Below are positions 3,766 to 32,943 of a stretch of DNA of 37,595 bases, piece after piece. Source of the DNA: a virus. The notes under the pieces were generated by a model. That model was not told the origin of the DNA, did no database searches, and saw nothing but the letters and a program-made list of their open reading frames with translations. Numbering within the stretch: position 1 is the first letter of the stretch; each line of letters opens with the position of its first letter. A program made the translations under genes and the position numbers. Location: UHGV virus genome UHGV-0051534. The stretch is one strand, 5' to 3'.

Positions 3766-4350
3766 TTATTTTTTGTTTTTTTCGTTCTGGTTGATGACAA
3801 ATTCAATGTAACTTTCGATCTTTGCTTTCTCGGTTTCGGGTAACAATGCGTAGCGCGAGCGATCATAGTTGATGGTCGCAGGGTCGTGCGGGTGAATCAG
3901 TAATTCATAGCCGTGACGCCCGAATGCGGATGCAACATTCTCCAGGGTGGAAATGGAAACGCTGACCTCATTGTTTAACAGGCGGCTGATTGTCACCTGG
4001 GCTACGCCGGATGCGCGGTGAAGTTTTCCCTGTGTTGAAAGGTCGCGGCTTTCGCTCATCCAGCGTTCCAGGTTGTGAGCCGCCAGCTGGCCAATGTCGC
4101 TTGGGCCGACAGGCTGAAAACCTTCCTGAGAAAGCGAGCGATCGATATCAAGCCAGTTACGGGGTTTATTGGCGGCAGCTTCAATTTTTCGTGCAACCTG
4201 GTCGCCGATAACCTTCTTGCCAAGAGCCCAGCGGTTTACCAGATTTGCCTGAGTTCCAAGTTTTTCAGCCATCCGCGTCTGAACACCATTGAATTCACGG
4301 TCGATCAAGTCGTTGAGATTTTGCCTGCGGACGTCCTGGATACTTTTCAT
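3766..4350 (-). CDS. immunity repressor (CI-like) with two HTH motifs and no S24 autocleavage domain
   Basis: 194 aa; HTH-like segments QTRMAEKLGTQANLVNRWALGKK and ASGVAQVTISRLLNNEVSVSISTLENVASAF; divergent from the Cro-like gene across an operator-rich gap; no peptidase-like C-terminal domain visible. Confidence 0.7.
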   Translation of the reverse strand: MKSIQDVRRQNLNDLIDREFNGVQTRMAEKLGTQANLVNRWALGKKVIGDQVARKIEAAANKPRNWLDIDRSLSQEGFQPVGPSDIGQLAAHNLERWMSESRDLSTQGKLHRASGVAQVTISRLLNNEVSVSISTLENVASAFGRHGYELLIHPHDPATINYDRSRYALLPETEKAKIESYIEFVINQNEKNKK

Positions 4351-13567: not shown

Positions 13568-13644
13568 TGGCGCGGCATGCAGGATTCGAACCTGCGACCA
13601 ACCGCTTAGAAGGCGGTTGCTCTGTCCAACTGAGCTAATGCCAC
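13568..13644 (-). tRNA. tRNA-Arg (anticodon UCU)
   Basis: 77-nt cloverleaf folded by hand: acceptor GTGGCAT/ATGCCGC (one G-U pair), D-arm GCTC-AGTTGGACA-GAGC, anticodon arm ACCGC-CTTCTAA-GCGGT, T-arm GCAGG-TTCGAAT-CCTGC, discriminator G, encoded CCA. Confidence 0.85.
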
Positions 13645-30735: not shown

Positions 30736-30805
30736 TGTGAAATTTCCATCTATAAGCCACCTCAATGTGGCGTCAATGAGTGTAGCACTGACTTTTGTTT
30801 CGTCC

Positions 30806-30829
30806 ACAAAAAAGCCCGCGCTGCGGGCT
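30806..30829 (-). terminator. rho-independent terminator after moron 2
   Basis: Minus-strand hairpin AGCCCGC-AGC-GCGGGCT followed by TTTTTT. Confidence 0.6.
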
Positions 30830-31353
30830 TACCAAAACTTGTACCACGGGGATTTATCCTTCAATGGACAATCCTTCCATCGTGTGGCCAACCATTCATA
30901 TTCTTTAAAATATGTGTTTATGTTTTCTTTTTCTCTAATAGCTTGTATAAGAGGTAGCGCAATCTGATAGTTATTTACAACGGAGCTGTAAAATACTTCC
31001 TTAATCATGGTCTCATCATAAGTTTTCCGCTTCACGCTCACAGCCATGCGTTCGTAGAAACCTAGACAGTAAATTATTTCTCTCTTCTCTATCTTTTCTT
31101 CATCCGTAAGATCAGCCTGCCCATTGCTTGGATACATATAAGAGCGGAATGATTTGTTCGACTCGTGAATGCGGCGCATAGTAGATAGGCCTTTCTTATA
31201 ATCTACATCAAACCTGCTTTCACCAAGGAATACTGAAGTGTGTACTTTTCTCGCTGTATTTACATTATAAATAATAGTAGCGATAGCTATGAACAAGCCA
31301 AGCGAAACCGCGACTGCACTTACGATTTGAGCCACAGCCATGGCAAATTGCAT
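30829..31353 (-). CDS. moron 2: N-terminally membrane-anchored protein of unknown function
   Basis: 174 aa from ATG 31353 (GTG 31368 possible); N-terminal TM helix AMAVAQIVSAVAVSLGLFIAIATIIY then soluble domain; about 37% GC; opposite strand to structural genes. Confidence 0.5.
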   Translation of the reverse strand: MQFAMAVAQIVSAVAVSLGLFIAIATIIYNVNTARKVHTSVFLGESRFDVDYKKGLSTMRRIHESNKSFRSYMYPSNGQADLTDEEKIEKREIIYCLGFYERMAVSVKRKTYDETMIKEVFYSSVVNNYQIALPLIQAIREKENINTYFKEYEWLATRWKDCPLKDKSPWYKFW

Positions 31354-31385
31354 TTCTTCACTTAACACAAACTGTCTCCAGACAT

Positions 31386-31409
31386 GAAAACGGGGCCTGA
31401 TGGCCCCGT
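31386..31409 (-). terminator. candidate terminator/attenuator upstream of moron 2
   Basis: Minus-strand hairpin ACGGGGCC-ATCA-GGCCCCGT followed by TTTT. Confidence 0.4.
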
Positions 31410-31497
31410 CATTAAACTATCCGAATGTTAAACGCCTTCGTACTCGTCAAATTTTCTCATGTGGGCTCCTCCTGTATCGGTGCCTAATCGCTATGGA

Positions 31498-31512
31498 TCA
31501 CCCGTAAGGTAA
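31498..31512. promoter_or_regulatory. operator-like inverted repeat TCACC-CGTAA-GGTAA
   Basis: 5-5-5 motif between the antirepressor and moron 2. Confidence 0.35.
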
Positions 31513-31583
31513 TAGTACTCTATTCACCCCCCGGTCTGCAATCGTACAGGATTATTTAAAGGCACATCCCTGTGCCGCCGCCG

Positions 31584-32279
31584 TCAGAAGAACCCTGCCT
31601 TGTCGTTGATGTACTCCGCGTGCGTCTGGATATCACGCAGGCATTTGCTCACACCAACGATGTAACAGAACATGGTGGTCAGCTCCGCCGCCGCGCCCGA
31701 TACATCGTGCCCGTCTTCCTGCAACTGGTTTAGCAGATTCATCAGCAGTGAGTTCTCCGTCAGGCCGAGAACACCTGACGGCGAATGAATCAGACTGCGG
31801 TAGCCGGGCTTCAGTGGGGCGCTGTAGGTTTTGTTCTCTATCTTCATTGCTTGCATTACTGCTGACGCCGTGGCGTTGGCTACCTGGTCGGCAACCATCT
31901 TTATGCGTTCTTCCTGCGGGAGCGAGTTTTTAATGTAACTTCCGGTGCGGCGGATCTGAGGAAGAACCTCACCTGTAACCCATTTACGAAAGCGGTAGGG
32001 GATAGTGCCTGGTGTCACCGCATCGCGGCAGCGGAGGATCAGTGTGTAGAGGCCTGACTCGGAGATGATGATCGATTCTTGCTCACCGCCAGGGGTGTCG
32101 GTTGAAGCGACGCCCTTCTCATCATCATCAAGTTTTCGAACAGCATCTCGATGGTTTGCTATGCCTATAGCCCGACAAACATCTGAAGCGATAAACCATG
32201 GCTCACCATTAATGACGATTACTCGTATATCGGCTTGGGATTCGAAAGAAAAAATGGACGTGCTTTTTGTAGCTGTCAT
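31584..32279 (-). CDS. ant: antirepressor, Bro-N domain family
   Basis: 231 aa; N-terminal FSFESQADIRVIVINGEPWFIASDVCRAIGIANHRDAVRKL is a Bro-N/Ant-like motif; C-terminal domain is paralogous to the upstream small protein. Confidence 0.75.
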   Translation of the reverse strand: MTATKSTSIFSFESQADIRVIVINGEPWFIASDVCRAIGIANHRDAVRKLDDDEKGVASTDTPGGEQESIIISESGLYTLILRCRDAVTPGTIPYRFRKWVTGEVLPQIRRTGSYIKNSLPQEERIKMVADQVANATASAVMQAMKIENKTYSAPLKPGYRSLIHSPSGVLGLTENSLLMNLLNQLQEDGHDVSGAAAELTTMFCYIVGVSKCLRDIQTHAEYINDKAGFF

Positions 32280-32435
32280 AGTGGTTACCTTTTAGTCTGG
32301 TTAATCACCACTACCGACGCCAATCGGTTGGTGGTGAACTGTGCAGGGTTGGCGTAACCGGCTAAAAGGACCCGGCGCACCTTTCGGTGCCCCCACACAG
32401 CCCACCATAATACGAATGTGGCCGTGCTATACGCA

Positions 32436-32456
32436 TAAAAAAACCGCTTGCGCGGT
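32436..32456 (-). terminator. intrinsic terminator/attenuator in the antirepressor leader
   Basis: Minus-strand hairpin ACCGC-GCAA-GCGGT followed by TTTTTTT. Confidence 0.45.
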
Positions 32457-32548
32457 GAATGCGCCTTTTAGTAATCCGGGACGCCAATCCCGGCACTGGA
32501 TTTTGCCAGTGCCTGATTACTATGGCACAAGAGGAGTGCGATGTAAAT

Positions 32549-32563
32549 TTACCGCAAAGGTAA
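32549..32563. promoter_or_regulatory. operator-like inverted repeat TTACC-GCAAA-GGTAA
   Basis: Exact motif in the 316-bp leader upstream of the antirepressor. Confidence 0.4.
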
Positions 32564-32594
32564 ATATAAGCACTCCGCTTGGTAATTGCAAACC

Positions 32595-32852
32595 TTATCT
32601 GGTTTGCTTTCGTAATTGTTCGGCACAATAGTCGAGATGTGTTTGCAGATCCTGCATAGACATCTGTGAGCTGGTGACGTAGTTAATCAGTGCAGTCAGT
32701 TCGGCAAGTGGGCCATCGACATTAAATCCATCCTTATCGAGATCCCGGAGTAATTTCATCAAGTGCGATCCCTCCACCAGTGATCTGACGCCTCCCGGCG
32801 TGTGAATCCTTTCGGTAAATCCGTCTTCCAGTGGATAGTGATACTGCTGCAT
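32595..32852 (-). CDS. small protein paralogous to the antirepressor C-terminal domain; candidate SOS-induced antirepressor
   Basis: 85 aa from ATG 32852 with GGAG RBS; YPLEDGFTERIHTPGGVRSLVEGSHLMKLLRDLDKDGFNVDGPLAELT aligns by eye with Ant APLKPGYRSLIHSPSGVLGLTENSLLMNLLNQLQEDGHDVSGAAAELT; LexA box just upstream. Confidence 0.55.
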   Translation of the reverse strand: MQQYHYPLEDGFTERIHTPGGVRSLVEGSHLMKLLRDLDKDGFNVDGPLAELTALINYVTSSQMSMQDLQTHLDYCAEQLRKQTR

Positions 32853-32871: not shown

Positions 32872-32891
32872 AACTGTATATTTATACAGTA
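32872..32891 (-). promoter_or_regulatory. LexA (SOS) box
   Basis: AACTGTATATTTATACAGTA matches the consensus TACTGTATATATATACAGTA (CTGT-N8-ACAG at 32874-32889); about 20 nt upstream of the small-protein ATG. Confidence 0.7.
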
Positions 32892-32928: not shown

Positions 32929-32943
32929 TTACCCGAAAGGTAA
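32929..32943. promoter_or_regulatory. operator-like inverted repeat TTACC-CGAAA-GGTAA
   Basis: Exact motif about 40 bp upstream of the LexA box and about 100 bp upstream of the tailspike start. Confidence 0.4.

Follow-up and report, generated by a model that had tools for sequence, protein, structure and literature searches.

What occupies the short untranslated interval between two antirepressor genes of the virus genome UHGV-0051534, and how might it act on the gene that follows? The window, by which we mean the whole 37,595-nt stretch of DNA analysed, has this gap at positions 32280-32594, between a small antirepressor gene and a Bro-N antirepressor gene (ant; Table 1). A preliminary description had placed a 316-bp structured leader here, between an SOS-controlled gene and the antirepressor; the gap is there, with a true length of 315 bp. 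Judged from its sequence, the gap forms an RNA immunity module of the P1 immI type, which comprises IsrK and C4 genes, with C4 target sites on the ribosome-binding site (RBS) of the downstream antirepressor. Its host element is a phiV10/epsilon15-like E. coli prophage, a podovirus of the Uetakevirus group. Read along the minus strand, the gap contains an operator/promoter region, isrK, the C4 gene and the short 5'UTR of the Bro-N ant gene, in that order. To call this a "leader" is incomplete: besides two RNA genes and a decoy/target array, the gap includes a promoter-like site and an operator of its own.

Table 1 Features of the gap and its flanks, listed by position in the window.
Feature	Sequence or size	Position	Strand	Basis
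Bro-N antirepressor gene (ant), the regulated gene	231 aa	31584..32279	-	Pfam Bro-N, E 2.3e-21; PHROG anti-repressor Ant, E 3.7e-63
b2, second C4 target; overlaps Shine-Dalgarno (SD) sequence AAAGG, 8 nt upstream of ant AUG	CUAAAAGG	32288..32295	-	Complementary to b'
Alternative helix enclosing a2	UCACCAC (32337..32331, 3' strand of C4 closing stem) with GUGGUGA (32311..32305)	32305..32337	-	Covariation
a2, first C4 target; small hairpin loop in ant 5'UTR	UUGGCGU	32317..32323	-	a':a2 covariation
C4 antisense RNA gene		32327..32412	-	Rfam RF01695 match, 32412..32327
a', single-stranded, C4 hairpin 2 to closing stem; predicted to recognise a1 and a2	ACGCCAA	32349..32355	-	Complementarity and covariation
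b', loop of C4 hairpin 2; predicted to recognise b1 and b2	CCUUUUAG	32362..32369	-	Complementarity
IsrK-type sRNA gene (same element as c4-a1b1)	76 nt	32437..32512	-	Rfam RF01394 match
IsrK intrinsic terminator	ACCGC-GCAA-GCGGU, then U7	32437..32456	-	Terminator scan; fits terminator stem of isrK model
b1, single-stranded, hairpin 2 to terminator; putative decoy copy of b2	CUAAAAGG	32464..32471	-	100% complementary to b'
a1, loop of IsrK hairpin 2; putative decoy copy of a2	UUGGCGU	32481..32487	-	Complementary to a'
Candidate IsrK promoter	-35 TTTACA (32547..32542), 17-nt spacer, extended -10 TG-C-CATAGT (32524..32519)	32519..32547	-	Promoter scan
Operator-like inverted repeat	TTACC-GCAAA-GGTAA, TTACCGCAAAGGTAA	32549..32563		One of 14 TTACC-N5-GGTAA copies
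Upstream small antirepressor gene	85 aa from ATG	32595..32852	-	88% identical to SPC32H Ant
LexA box, promoter of small antirepressor gene	CTGTATATTTATACAG	32874..32889		Sequence
Second operator copy	TTACC-CGAAA-GGTAA	32929..32943		Upstream of LexA-box promoter; same placement in SPC32H

The upstream gene, previously called SOS-controlled, does have a LexA box in its promoter and itself encodes an antirepressor. The C-terminal domain of the Bro-N protein (residues 150-223) is homologous to this small Ant (42% identity, E 1e-19). No minus-strand terminator was detected by the terminator scan between the small antirepressor gene and isrK (32595..32513).

The gap had been said to hold no credible ORF, and this was upheld. 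Among the five gap ORFs of 34-96 aa, the four other than one opened by an AUG inside C4 had no PHROG matches, and the 35- and 37-aa ORFs had no Pfam matches; all that the 35-aa ORF gave was a weak match, 20 residues long, to a family whose function is unknown. The AUG inside C4 (position 32408) is invariant in all C4 homologues and opens a 35-aa ORF ending 21 nt before the ant AUG. Across homologous loci this ORF ranges from 8 to 57 aa and is conserved neither in length nor in frame. It halts after 14-15 codons, inside the b' loop and 83-90 nt before the gene, in 12 of 26 C4 variants, including those of P1 and of L027 and L045, the closest relatives with a different b specificity. Conservation of the AUG is explained by the RNA, since the codon belongs to the conserved closing stem. 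A protein-coding explanation of the gap was ruled out by the absent Pfam and PHROG support, bar the one weak partial match, and by this unconserved ORF.

Upstream in the direction of transcription lies isrK, matched by the full-length Rfam covariance model with 77.9 bits (cut-off 50, E 3e-15). The narrower, overlapping c4-a1b1 model (RF03163) fell slightly short of its cut-off (46.7), with 43.6 bits on 32525..32473, and P1's own a1/b1 region scored 51 with the same model. IsrK begins with hairpin 1 (32512..32493), followed by hairpin 2 (32493..32476), from which a single-stranded linker leads to the intrinsic terminator. All the GC-rich hairpins reported earlier were located on the minus strand, far beyond chance: GCACTGG-N6-CCAGTGC (32493-32512) is IsrK hairpin 1, with compensatory changes at 5 of 6 pairs (18 loci), CCGGGA-N6-TCCCGG (32476-32493) is IsrK hairpin 2, and GGCACC-GAAA-GGUGC (32376-32391, minus-strand reading) is hairpin 1 of C4. 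The intrinsic terminator was likewise recovered, as a minus-strand CCGC-GCAA-GCGG stem followed by U7 (32456..32437). A further helix between GCGCAU before the terminator and AUGCGU after the U-tract was paired in 72% of cells, and controls slid by +/-2 were almost equal. Within IsrK, a1 falls in a 10-nt exact direct repeat shared with 32316-32325 and b1 in a 9-nt exact direct repeat shared with 32288-32296.

The candidate promoter before isrK is a 9/12 consensus match with TG, scored in the promoter scan on consensus match alone, and the start predicted from it, at about 32512, is also where the Rfam isrK model begins (position 1). Its sequence is conserved in the relatives L027, L045 and L087-L089. 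With a terminator and a promoter-like site at fitting distances, both conserved in relatives, IsrK is a candidate independent transcript. The operator-like site noted before proved to belong to a family of inverted repeats, TTACC-N5-GGTAA, that has 14 members in the window where 0.71 would be expected, with the consensus ATTACC-N5-GGTAAT. Four members of this family flank a two-HTH repressor-like ORF (3766..4350, a 194-aa HTH protein), and the half-sites are kept while the spacer varies in Klebsiella and E. coli relatives. The motif is likely the phage repressor site, to which the repressor would bind. The copy in the gap precedes the -35 of the IsrK promoter by 1 bp, and it also overlaps with the -10 of another promoter-like site, which lies further upstream. 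Its centre is near -44, a position compatible with activation as well as with repression.

The Rfam covariance search aligned the C4 gene with the whole family model (positions 1-87 of 87) at 77.7 bits, above a cut-off of 45 (E 1e-13). Alignment with the annotated 77-nt P1 C4 (L097, 4344-4420; P1 site coordinates were taken from the GenBank annotation) predicts a mature C4 of 77 nt at 32406..32330, whose 3' end lies 50 nt upstream of the ant AUG on the same strand. In the fold of this RNA, a closing stem of 16 bp surrounds two hairpins and leaves a 3' ACC tail, with the stem resembling that of a tRNA, and 12 of its 25 consensus pairs show compensatory changes on both sides (19 loci including P1). 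The 236-nt minus-strand RNA that spans the elements has a fold of -101.8 kcal/mol, compared with -77.5 +/- 5.25 kcal/mol for shuffled sequences (z = -4.63; 0 of 200 shuffles equally stable). RNA folding and covariance over homologous loci, the check named in the preliminary description, came out in favour of structured RNA, through this z-score and the compensatory changes in C4 and IsrK stems. According to Hartmann 1995, as cited in PMC11143913, the C4 precursor is processed by RNase P. The C4 of the window may be cut likewise into a stable trans repressor of about 77 nt, as its predicted length, tRNA-like stem and 3' ACC would suggest.

The recognition words of C4 occur in duplicate around it. 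The composite word TTGGCGT-N(5-35)-CTAAAAGG has 3 occurrences in the 37.6-kb window, all within the gap, where 0.01 is expected, and no further C4 targets were found elsewhere in the window. Complementarity was maintained by covariation: a1:a' was paired in 95.5% of cells with 5 of 7 pairs compensatory over 19 loci, and a':a2 in 97.7%, again with 5 of 7 compensatory, while slid controls of the latter gave 25-36%; none of 500 shuffles was as good in either case. The alternative helix that encloses a2 was paired in 99.2% of cells with 3 compensatory pairs, and is present in the minimum free energy (MFE) fold of the unprocessed transcript. Since MAFFT loses the register of the variable-length b' loop and of b1/b2, the b sites were assessed by an alignment-free test of self versus non-self complementarity in place of column-wise covariation. 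Among 26 distinct modules, drawn from 97 related loci plus the window and including P1, the module's own C4 fitted both targets in 24, compared with 19 of 650 non-self combinations, and b' made at least 6 perfect pairs with its own b2 in 92% of the modules (non-self, 12%). The 26 distinct C4 cores contain 10 a-variants and 17 b-variants, counted by eye; the L027-type b, for example, is CUACAAAGG. Local duplex energies were -9.2 kcal/mol for b'/b2 and -10.3 kcal/mol for a'/a2; loop-loop complexes were not predicted by duplexfold/cofold of whole C4 with the ant leader or with IsrK. What the present analysis establishes is that the two RNAs belong to their families, how they are structured, that the three elements are complementary and covary, that b2 overlaps the SD, and that the operator is one of a family.

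The module is widespread. A C4 homologue was found by nhmmer in all 97 fetched loci, and a scan of 20 diverse loci showed the isrK-C4 tandem ahead of an antirepressor-type gene in 18, the two exceptions being P1, with an a1/b1 element instead of an isrK match, and L096, with C4 alone. An 851-bp query around the gap had matches in 999 of 5426 complete E. coli genomes, and 391 matches span at least 80% of the query.

We estimate a probability of roughly 0.85 that this P1-immI-type module holds the Bro-N antirepressor in check during lysogeny. P1 and Gifsy-1 serve here as models for the direction in which regulation would run, for processing, for IsrK as a decoy and for the protein that would bind the operator. 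Transcription would start at about 32512 on the minus strand, at the promoter beside the phage-repressor operator, and the intrinsic terminator would stop most transcripts, giving the 76-nt IsrK sRNA, with a read-through minority that would carry C4 and the ant mRNA. From this message C4 would be excised as a stable, tRNA-like 77-nt RNA, as is done by RNase P in P1, and its b' and a' would pair with b2 and a2 in the ant 5'UTR. Because b2 covers the SD sequence, its pairing would shut ribosomes out and no Ant would be made. In P1, Rho terminates the untranslated message after the C4 block. C4 would work in cis or in trans, and so may also silence an incoming phage of the same a/b specificity. 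When IsrK is in excess over C4, the a1/b1 decoy would occupy a' and b', free the ant RBS and allow Ant to be made, and the prophage repressor would be inactivated. Expression, processing and the decoy role in this prophage are thus predicted by analogy. That the preliminary description had thought of antisense-RNA control as in P1 c4 agrees with these findings, C4 being a family RNA with loops complementary to the ant RBS.

A close experimental parallel is the isrK-orf45(STnc1160)-anrP region of Salmonella Gifsy-1 (Hershko-Shalev et al. 2016, PMC4825925), which shares with the window an IsrK with a terminator, partial read-through into an antirepressor gene and a C4-family element at the orf45/STnc1160 position. 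There, IsrK binds Hfq and activates antirepressor translation in trans, with a lift of anrP translation of about 140-fold; G28A and G31A abolish the effect, and C162U and C159U compensate (PMC4825925). Numbered by us from 32512, G28/G31 fall in a1 and C162/C159 in a', so that the mutated pairs G28:C162 and G31:C159 are a1:a' positions of the window. The IsrK of the window would be a counterpart by analogy. A processed RNA of about 80 nt, STnc1160, also arises from the C4 position; the authors nevertheless attributed activation to the upstream orf45, which overlaps C4 and is coupled to anrP, and not to a processed, trans-acting C4, and constitutive STnc1160 did not counteract IsrK toxicity (PMC4825925).

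Transferred to the window, that scheme would have the IsrK sequence pair in cis with the C4 region and so keep the long transcript translationally inactive, IsrK supplied in trans open the RBS of the ORF starting at the C4 AUG, and translational coupling switch ant on, leaving processed C4 without a role. The MFE fold of the 236-nt transcript does pair a1:a' and b1:b' in cis, like "structure A" of PMC4825925, and the invariant AUG and its 35-aa ORF would suit it. We nonetheless regard it as improbable: the ORF is unconserved and stops early in almost half of the C4 variants, the closing stem accounts for the conserved AUG, and b2 lies directly on the ant SD, which makes a coupling ORF unnecessary. 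In Gifsy-1 the orf45 stop overlaps the anrP AUG (AUGA), and coupling was shown; the corresponding ORF of the window ends 21 nt before the ant AUG. Another difference from Gifsy-1 is the setting of the window module, immediately after the small antirepressor gene under LexA control and in a podovirus genome.

Attenuation had been suggested in the preliminary description. In a simple transcriptional scheme of this kind, no RNA would act in trans, and the terminator in a structured leader would limit how far transcripts from the SOS promoter run on into ant; the scheme gains from the good minus-strand terminator, which SOS transcripts must meet given that no terminator stands between the small antirepressor gene and isrK. 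Part of the suggestion survives, as the terminator ends IsrK and only read-through reaches C4 and ant, as for Gifsy-1 (PMC4825925). As the whole mechanism it is very unlikely, and it leaves unexplained the C4 family RNA downstream of the terminator, the duplicated target words with their three-way covariation with the C4 loops, and the separate promoter and operator before IsrK. The P22 sar model, also raised earlier, in which a plus-strand small RNA of the gap would pair with the ant message, has a negligible chance: it draws on a general analogy alone, that of an antirepressor gene following an untranslated region next to a tailspike gene as in P22 immI, whereas no plus-strand promoter-like site was seen in the gap by promoter scan, the one terminator-like match there on the plus strand has a weak stem of 5 bp and overlaps the IsrK terminator, no Rfam sar match appeared even at E <= 10, and every covarying structure is on the minus strand. 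P22 shares post-transcriptional antirepressor control and an immI region beside the tailspike gene, but its sar is an antisense RNA encoded in cis on the strand opposite to ant, and nothing alike was detectable in the gap.

The reading preferred here, a C4-based immunity module, has a parallel in immI of P1 and P7 (Oc4/Op51, P51a/b, a1 b1, c4, a2 b2, icd, ant1/2), which has the same element order as the window. In both, a repressor operator (putative in the window) lies at the promoter, a1 is in a hairpin loop, b' is in the loop of hairpin 2, a' is single-stranded, b2 is on an SD, and the controlled gene is an antirepressor; both also have a 77-nt C4 (predicted in the window) with a tRNA-like stem and 3' ACC. 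Spacings are almost the same: a1-b1 is 9 nt in the window and 7 nt in P1, and a2-b2 is 21 or 22 nt. The recognition sequences of P1 differ (a = UUGACAG, b = GUUAGUG), for which reason the window would be heteroimmune. P1-type immI has icd, a cell-division inhibitor gene translationally coupled to ant, between c4 and ant; in the window ant follows C4 directly, b2 falls on ant's own SD, and the 50 nt from C4 to the ant AUG contain no icd-like ORF. The a1/b1 element of the window has an intrinsic terminator of its own, as expected of an independent sRNA, and none was seen in P1; the operator, TTACC-N5-GGTAA, would be that of a different repressor, compared with the C1 site in P1; and the Ant of the window is a Bro-N fusion, unlike that of P1. 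The window would therefore work like immI, yet its gene content is not that of the P1 operon type.

Two other systems are related in part. APSE phages of Hamiltonella (PMC7313666; L082) have c4 and isrK upstream of a Bro-N protein gene, and their a'/b' regions match the upstream non-coding region of the BRO-N gene (PMC7313666); they differ in specificity (a = UUCGCAU, b = CUAAACAGG) and in site, between the DNA polymerase and roi genes. The CI RNA of satellite phage P4, with seqA/seqC, is also a leader-derived RNA that pairs with sites on both sides of itself and turns downstream genes off, and was named a structural analogue by the Gifsy-1 authors (PMC4825925), but belongs to another RNA family and acts through transcription termination.

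The module is real but ordinary, of a known RNA immunity kind common to phage P1 and Salmonella Gifsy-1, and it brings no new mechanism. It does account for a stretch of DNA on which the public records inspected offer no explanation: at this place the phiV10 record has a "terminator" and a similarity note only, and the best RefSeq E. coli matches to the gap region have no RNA feature annotated beneath the match. In several lambdoid phages, annotated CDSs run across both RNA genes.

The one modest point is the tandem placement of the module behind a LexA-controlled small antirepressor gene. As no terminator precedes isrK, SOS-driven transcripts would carry extra a1/b1 decoy and some C4. We tentatively consider, as a possibility rather than an expectation, that in phiV10-like prophages the module forms a second stage of SOS induction, in which the transcripts of the small antirepressor gene would titrate C4 with their surplus decoy and unlock the larger antirepressor, in whose C-terminal domain the fold of the small Ant recurs. 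Both promoters have the same putative repressor operator, and the whole would be a feed-forward switch that reinforces itself.

By our own reading of the loci, at least 7 different a/b combinations exist among close relatives that share the promoter. This suggests that the recognition loops a and b are shuffled independently as RNA "immunity barcodes", far more widely than in the P1/P7 pair. For such prophages we predict an RNA-based secondary immunity, with the specificity a = UUGGCGU and b = CUAAAAGG in the present case, and this a/b specificity should decide which related phages escape repression in the lysogen.

All the elements that the preliminary description had listed in the gap between the two antirepressor genes, namely three hairpins, an intrinsic terminator and an operator-like inverted repeat, are present, and the gap itself measures 315 bp and not 316 bp. 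The computed fold of the minus strand from 32512 to 32277 (-101.8 kcal/mol) was more stable than that of dinucleotide shuffles (-77.5 ± 5.25 kcal/mol, z = -4.63), and the features of the gap are beyond chance. An Rfam scan of the whole window at curated thresholds returned two matches, isrK and the C4 antisense RNA, both within the gap and on the strand of the surrounding genes, all of which lie on the minus strand. From their positions, the first two hairpins and the terminator constitute the IsrK sRNA, and C4 has the third as its hairpin 1. A permissive scan run in addition placed the c4-a1b1 motif (RF03163, described in Rfam as 'a1, b1 targets of C4 antisense RNA') at 32525..32473, overlapping isrK, with 43.6 bits, just under the cut-off of 46.7.

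Features of the gap and its surroundings in the window
Feature	Position	Strand	Details
LexA box	32874-32889		CTGTATATTTATACAG, perfect; precedes small antirepressor gene
Small antirepressor gene	32852..32595	-	ORF listed as 91 aa from TTG; 85 aa from ATG with GGAG ahead
Gap	32594..32280		
Operator-like inverted repeat	32549-32563		TTACCGCAAAGGTAA
isrK (RF01394)	32512..32437	-	77.9 bits, cut-off 50
Hairpin GCACTGG-N6-CCAGTGC	32493-32512		
Hairpin CCGGGA-N6-TCCCGG	32476-32493		
a1	32487..32481	-	same word as a2; loop of IsrK hairpin 2
b1	32471..32464	-	same word as b2; single-stranded IsrK linker
Intrinsic terminator	32456..32437	-	ACCGC-GCAA-GCGGU + U7
C4 antisense RNA (RF01695)	32412..32327	-	77.7 bits, cut-off 45
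Hairpin GGCACC-GAAA-GGUGC	32376-32391	-	
b'	32369..32362	-	CCUUUUAG; loop of C4 hairpin 2
a'	32355..32349	-	ACGCCAA; single-stranded, ahead of C4 closing stem
a2	32323..32317	-	UUGGCGU; small hairpin loop downstream of C4
b2	32295..32288	-	CUAAAAGG; overlaps Shine-Dalgarno AAAGG, 8 nt before ant AUG
Bro-N antirepressor gene (ant)	32279..31584	-	231 aa; Pfam Bro-N E 2.3e-21
Operator-like copies, 15 bp each	3632, 3694, 4406, 4454, 4791, 6737, 6799, 10399, 10417, 13350, 13967, 31498, 32549, 32929		

The predicted mature C4 (32406..32330), exactly 77 nt when aligned with that of P1, folds into a 16-bp stem and two hairpins with a free 3' ACC. Its recognition words a' and b' are matched by complementary words in IsrK (a1, b1) and in the ant 5'UTR (a2, b2). 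Independently, a repeat finder recovered the exact direct repeats GACGCCAATC (32316-25 and 32480-89) and CCTTTTAGT (32288-96 and 32464-72), as well as exact inverted repeats between the target words and C4. For the composite word TTGGCGT-N(5-35)-CTAAAAGG, 37.6 kb contained three occurrences where 0.01 would be expected; a1-b1 and a2-b2 account for two of them and the complement of a'-b' for the third, so that C4 has no further target in the window. A conserved alternative helix joins the 3' strand of the C4 closing stem (32331-32337) with the downstream GUGGUGA (32305-32311) on the minus strand (99.2% paired, three compensatory pairs), placing a2 in a hairpin loop; in the unprocessed transcript it would compete with formation of mature C4.

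Related loci comprised 79 viral contigs found via the Ant protein, 16 diverse phage records found by DNA similarity (including Stx phages, phiP27, cdtI, Klebsiella, Enterobacter, Hafnia, Yersinia and Actinobacillus phages and APSE-3), phiV10 and P1. C4 was present in 97/97 loci by profile search. Of 20 diverse loci scanned with Rfam, 18 gave the isrK and C4 tandem, and the other two were P1 (c4-a1b1 and C4) and a Salmonella houtenae contig (L096, C4 alone). In the latter, C4 (1182-1266) has fitting a and b words on both sides; an isrK match above threshold was not found, the upstream element apparently lacks a typical terminator, and the annotation shows no gene of antirepressor type downstream. 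Compensatory changes affected 12 of the 25 consensus pairs of C4 and five of the six pairs of IsrK hairpin 1.

The 26 distinct C4 cores, compared together with their own targets, carry 10 a-words and 17 b-words (counted by eye), and in nearly every case IsrK and the 5'UTR of the gene that follows repeat the word of their C4. With at least six perfect pairs required to both a2 and b2, C4 fitted the targets of its own module in 24/26 cases, against 19/650 foreign combinations, most of these 19 being between modules of one specificity. In a 19-sequence alignment, a1:a' and a':a2 were 95.5% and 97.7% paired, respectively, each with compensatory changes in 5/7 pairs and equalled by 0/500 shuffles; slid controls gave 23-52%. 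The words of IsrK, C4 and the ant 5'UTR therefore change together. Close relatives of the window, which share its promoter and Ant family, differ from it in their a/b combinations, for example with UUUGCAC (L032) or UUGGUCU (L065) as a, and CUACAAAGG (L027) or CUAAGUGG (L045) as b.

The module would work like the immI region of P1 and belongs to the C4 and IsrK RNA families. The GenBank annotation of immI gives the same layout of elements, with the operator Oc4, two promoters, 'putative a1' and 'b1', a 77-nt c4 RNA, a2 and b2 ('repression of icd ant translation'), icd and ant. Spacings are 9 nt (window) and 7 nt (P1) for a1-b1, and 21 and 22 nt for a2-b2, and Oc4/Op51 is paralleled by the operator-like site at the candidate IsrK promoter. 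The window has no icd, and in gene content its module thus differs from the P1-type operon. In P1, the C4 precursor is processed from the operon transcript by RNase P (Hartmann et al. 1995, as cited in PMC11143913) and C4 pairs with a2/b2 and blocks translation (Citron and Schuster 1990, as cited in PMC12197685), the role that the GenBank annotation likewise assigns. In the Salmonella prophage Gifsy-1, IsrK is an sRNA of 77 nt, and some transcripts pass its terminator and extend into orf45-anrP. When supplied in trans, IsrK increases translation of anrP ~140-fold; G28A and G31A abolish activation and are compensated by C162U and C159U. The orf45 region also yields STnc1160, a processed RNA of ~80 nt (PMC4825925). 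Numbered from 32512, G28 and G31 fall within a1 and C162 and C159 within a', so that the published 'helix b-I' is the a1:a' pairing. As in the window, APSE phages carry an isrK/C4 pair ahead of a Bro-N protein (PMC7313666); the module was not annotated before, and its RNA families and Bro-N pairing were already known. The sRNA-Xcc1 family, reported adjoining the module in some APSE phages, gave an Rfam match just downstream of the antirepressor gene of phiSTEC1589-Stx1c (2167-2257, 68.6 bits, cut-off 53).

The structural and comparative steps of the resulting model are observed; the direction of control, processing and the decoy role are taken from P1 and Gifsy-1. By this analogy, C4 would most likely occlude the ribosome-binding site of the Bro-N antirepressor gene and thereby silence it, IsrK in excess would act as a target mimic lifting the block, and the IsrK terminator would set the ratio of decoy to C4 and ant. 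The Gifsy-1 authors' own model, in which translation of orf45 drives activation, is improbable here, as neither length nor frame of such an ORF is kept in the window's clade, where coupling of this type is not conserved. The AUG at 32408 lies within the C4 stem, which accounts for its invariance among C4 homologues; the ORF that it opens has 35 aa in the window and 8-57 aa elsewhere, in other loci often ending inside the b' loop or continuing in frame into the next gene. The claim that the gap contains no credible ORF holds up, its ORFs being without meaningful family support. Annotated CDS ('transcriptional regulator', 'antirepressor Ant', 'hypothetical protein') overrun isrK and/or C4 in cdtI (825-1973), phiP27 (1131-1790), Stx1_699 (957-1979) and VT2-Sakai (1263-1436), and in the first three the AUG within C4 shares its reading frame with the gene that follows; wrongly placed starts or spurious ORFs in the annotation are the probable cause.

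The window is a phiV10/epsilon15-like (Uetakevirus) E. coli prophage, with 95.9% identity to phiV10 and up to 99.3% to E. coli chromosomes over an 851-bp stretch around the gap that is matched in 999 of 5426 complete genomes. At up to one mismatch, the window contains 14 copies of TTACC-N5-GGTAA where 0.71 would be expected, with the consensus ATTACC-N5-GGTAAT. Four copies bracket a gene for a 194-aa two-HTH repressor-like protein (3766..4350, minus strand), others precede several early and late gene blocks, and that at 31498 lies between ant and the DUF4760 gene; two (13350, 13967) flank a tRNA-Arg gene (anticodon TCT; 13568-13644, minus strand) within the prophage. The copy at 32929-32943 is upstream of the LexA-box promoter, and Salmonella phage SPC32H has one at the equivalent position. 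The site in the gap ends 1 bp ahead of the -35 (TTTACA) of a promoter-like site with an extended -10, from which transcription is predicted to start at IsrK position 1. The gap site also overlaps the -10 of a second, more upstream promoter-like site; the E. coli and Klebsiella relatives retain the half-sites and the promoter and differ in the spacer. The 14 repeats probably serve the phage repressor as operators, and at the gap site its effect may be repression or activation. A 12-nt inverted repeat (92%; 32528-32539 with 32570-32581) encloses the operator and the -35 of the IsrK promoter. The -10..+4 region (32509-32522) is complementary over 14 nt to the IsrK a1-b1 linker (32469-32482), a pairing possible only in transcripts from the LexA-controlled promoter, where it would refold the decoy.

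Two antirepressors stand in tandem, one LexA-controlled (32595-32852) and one with predicted control by C4 (31584-32279), both on the minus strand. The product of the former is 88% identical to SPC32H Ant. The Bro-N protein matches the PHROG family 'anti-repressor Ant' (E 3.7e-63), and its C-terminal domain (residues 150-223) reuses the small-Ant fold (42% identity, E 1e-19). The isrK-C4-ant cassette is absent from the corresponding site of SPC32H and epsilon15, where a small membrane-protein gene directly adjoins the small ant gene (SPC32H locus, 1311-1761). The window has ~2 kb extra here (about 30800-32550), comprising isrK, C4, Bro-N ant and the DUF4760 gene (30829..31368), which has the appearance of a cassette that was inserted. 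A terminator scan found none between the SOS gene and isrK. It is this context, behind a LexA-controlled antirepressor, that makes the module modestly unusual, and the tandem antirepressors, their common fold and the lack of a terminator before isrK raise the tentative, rather unlikely possibility that the SOS response might feed forward into the RNA switch.
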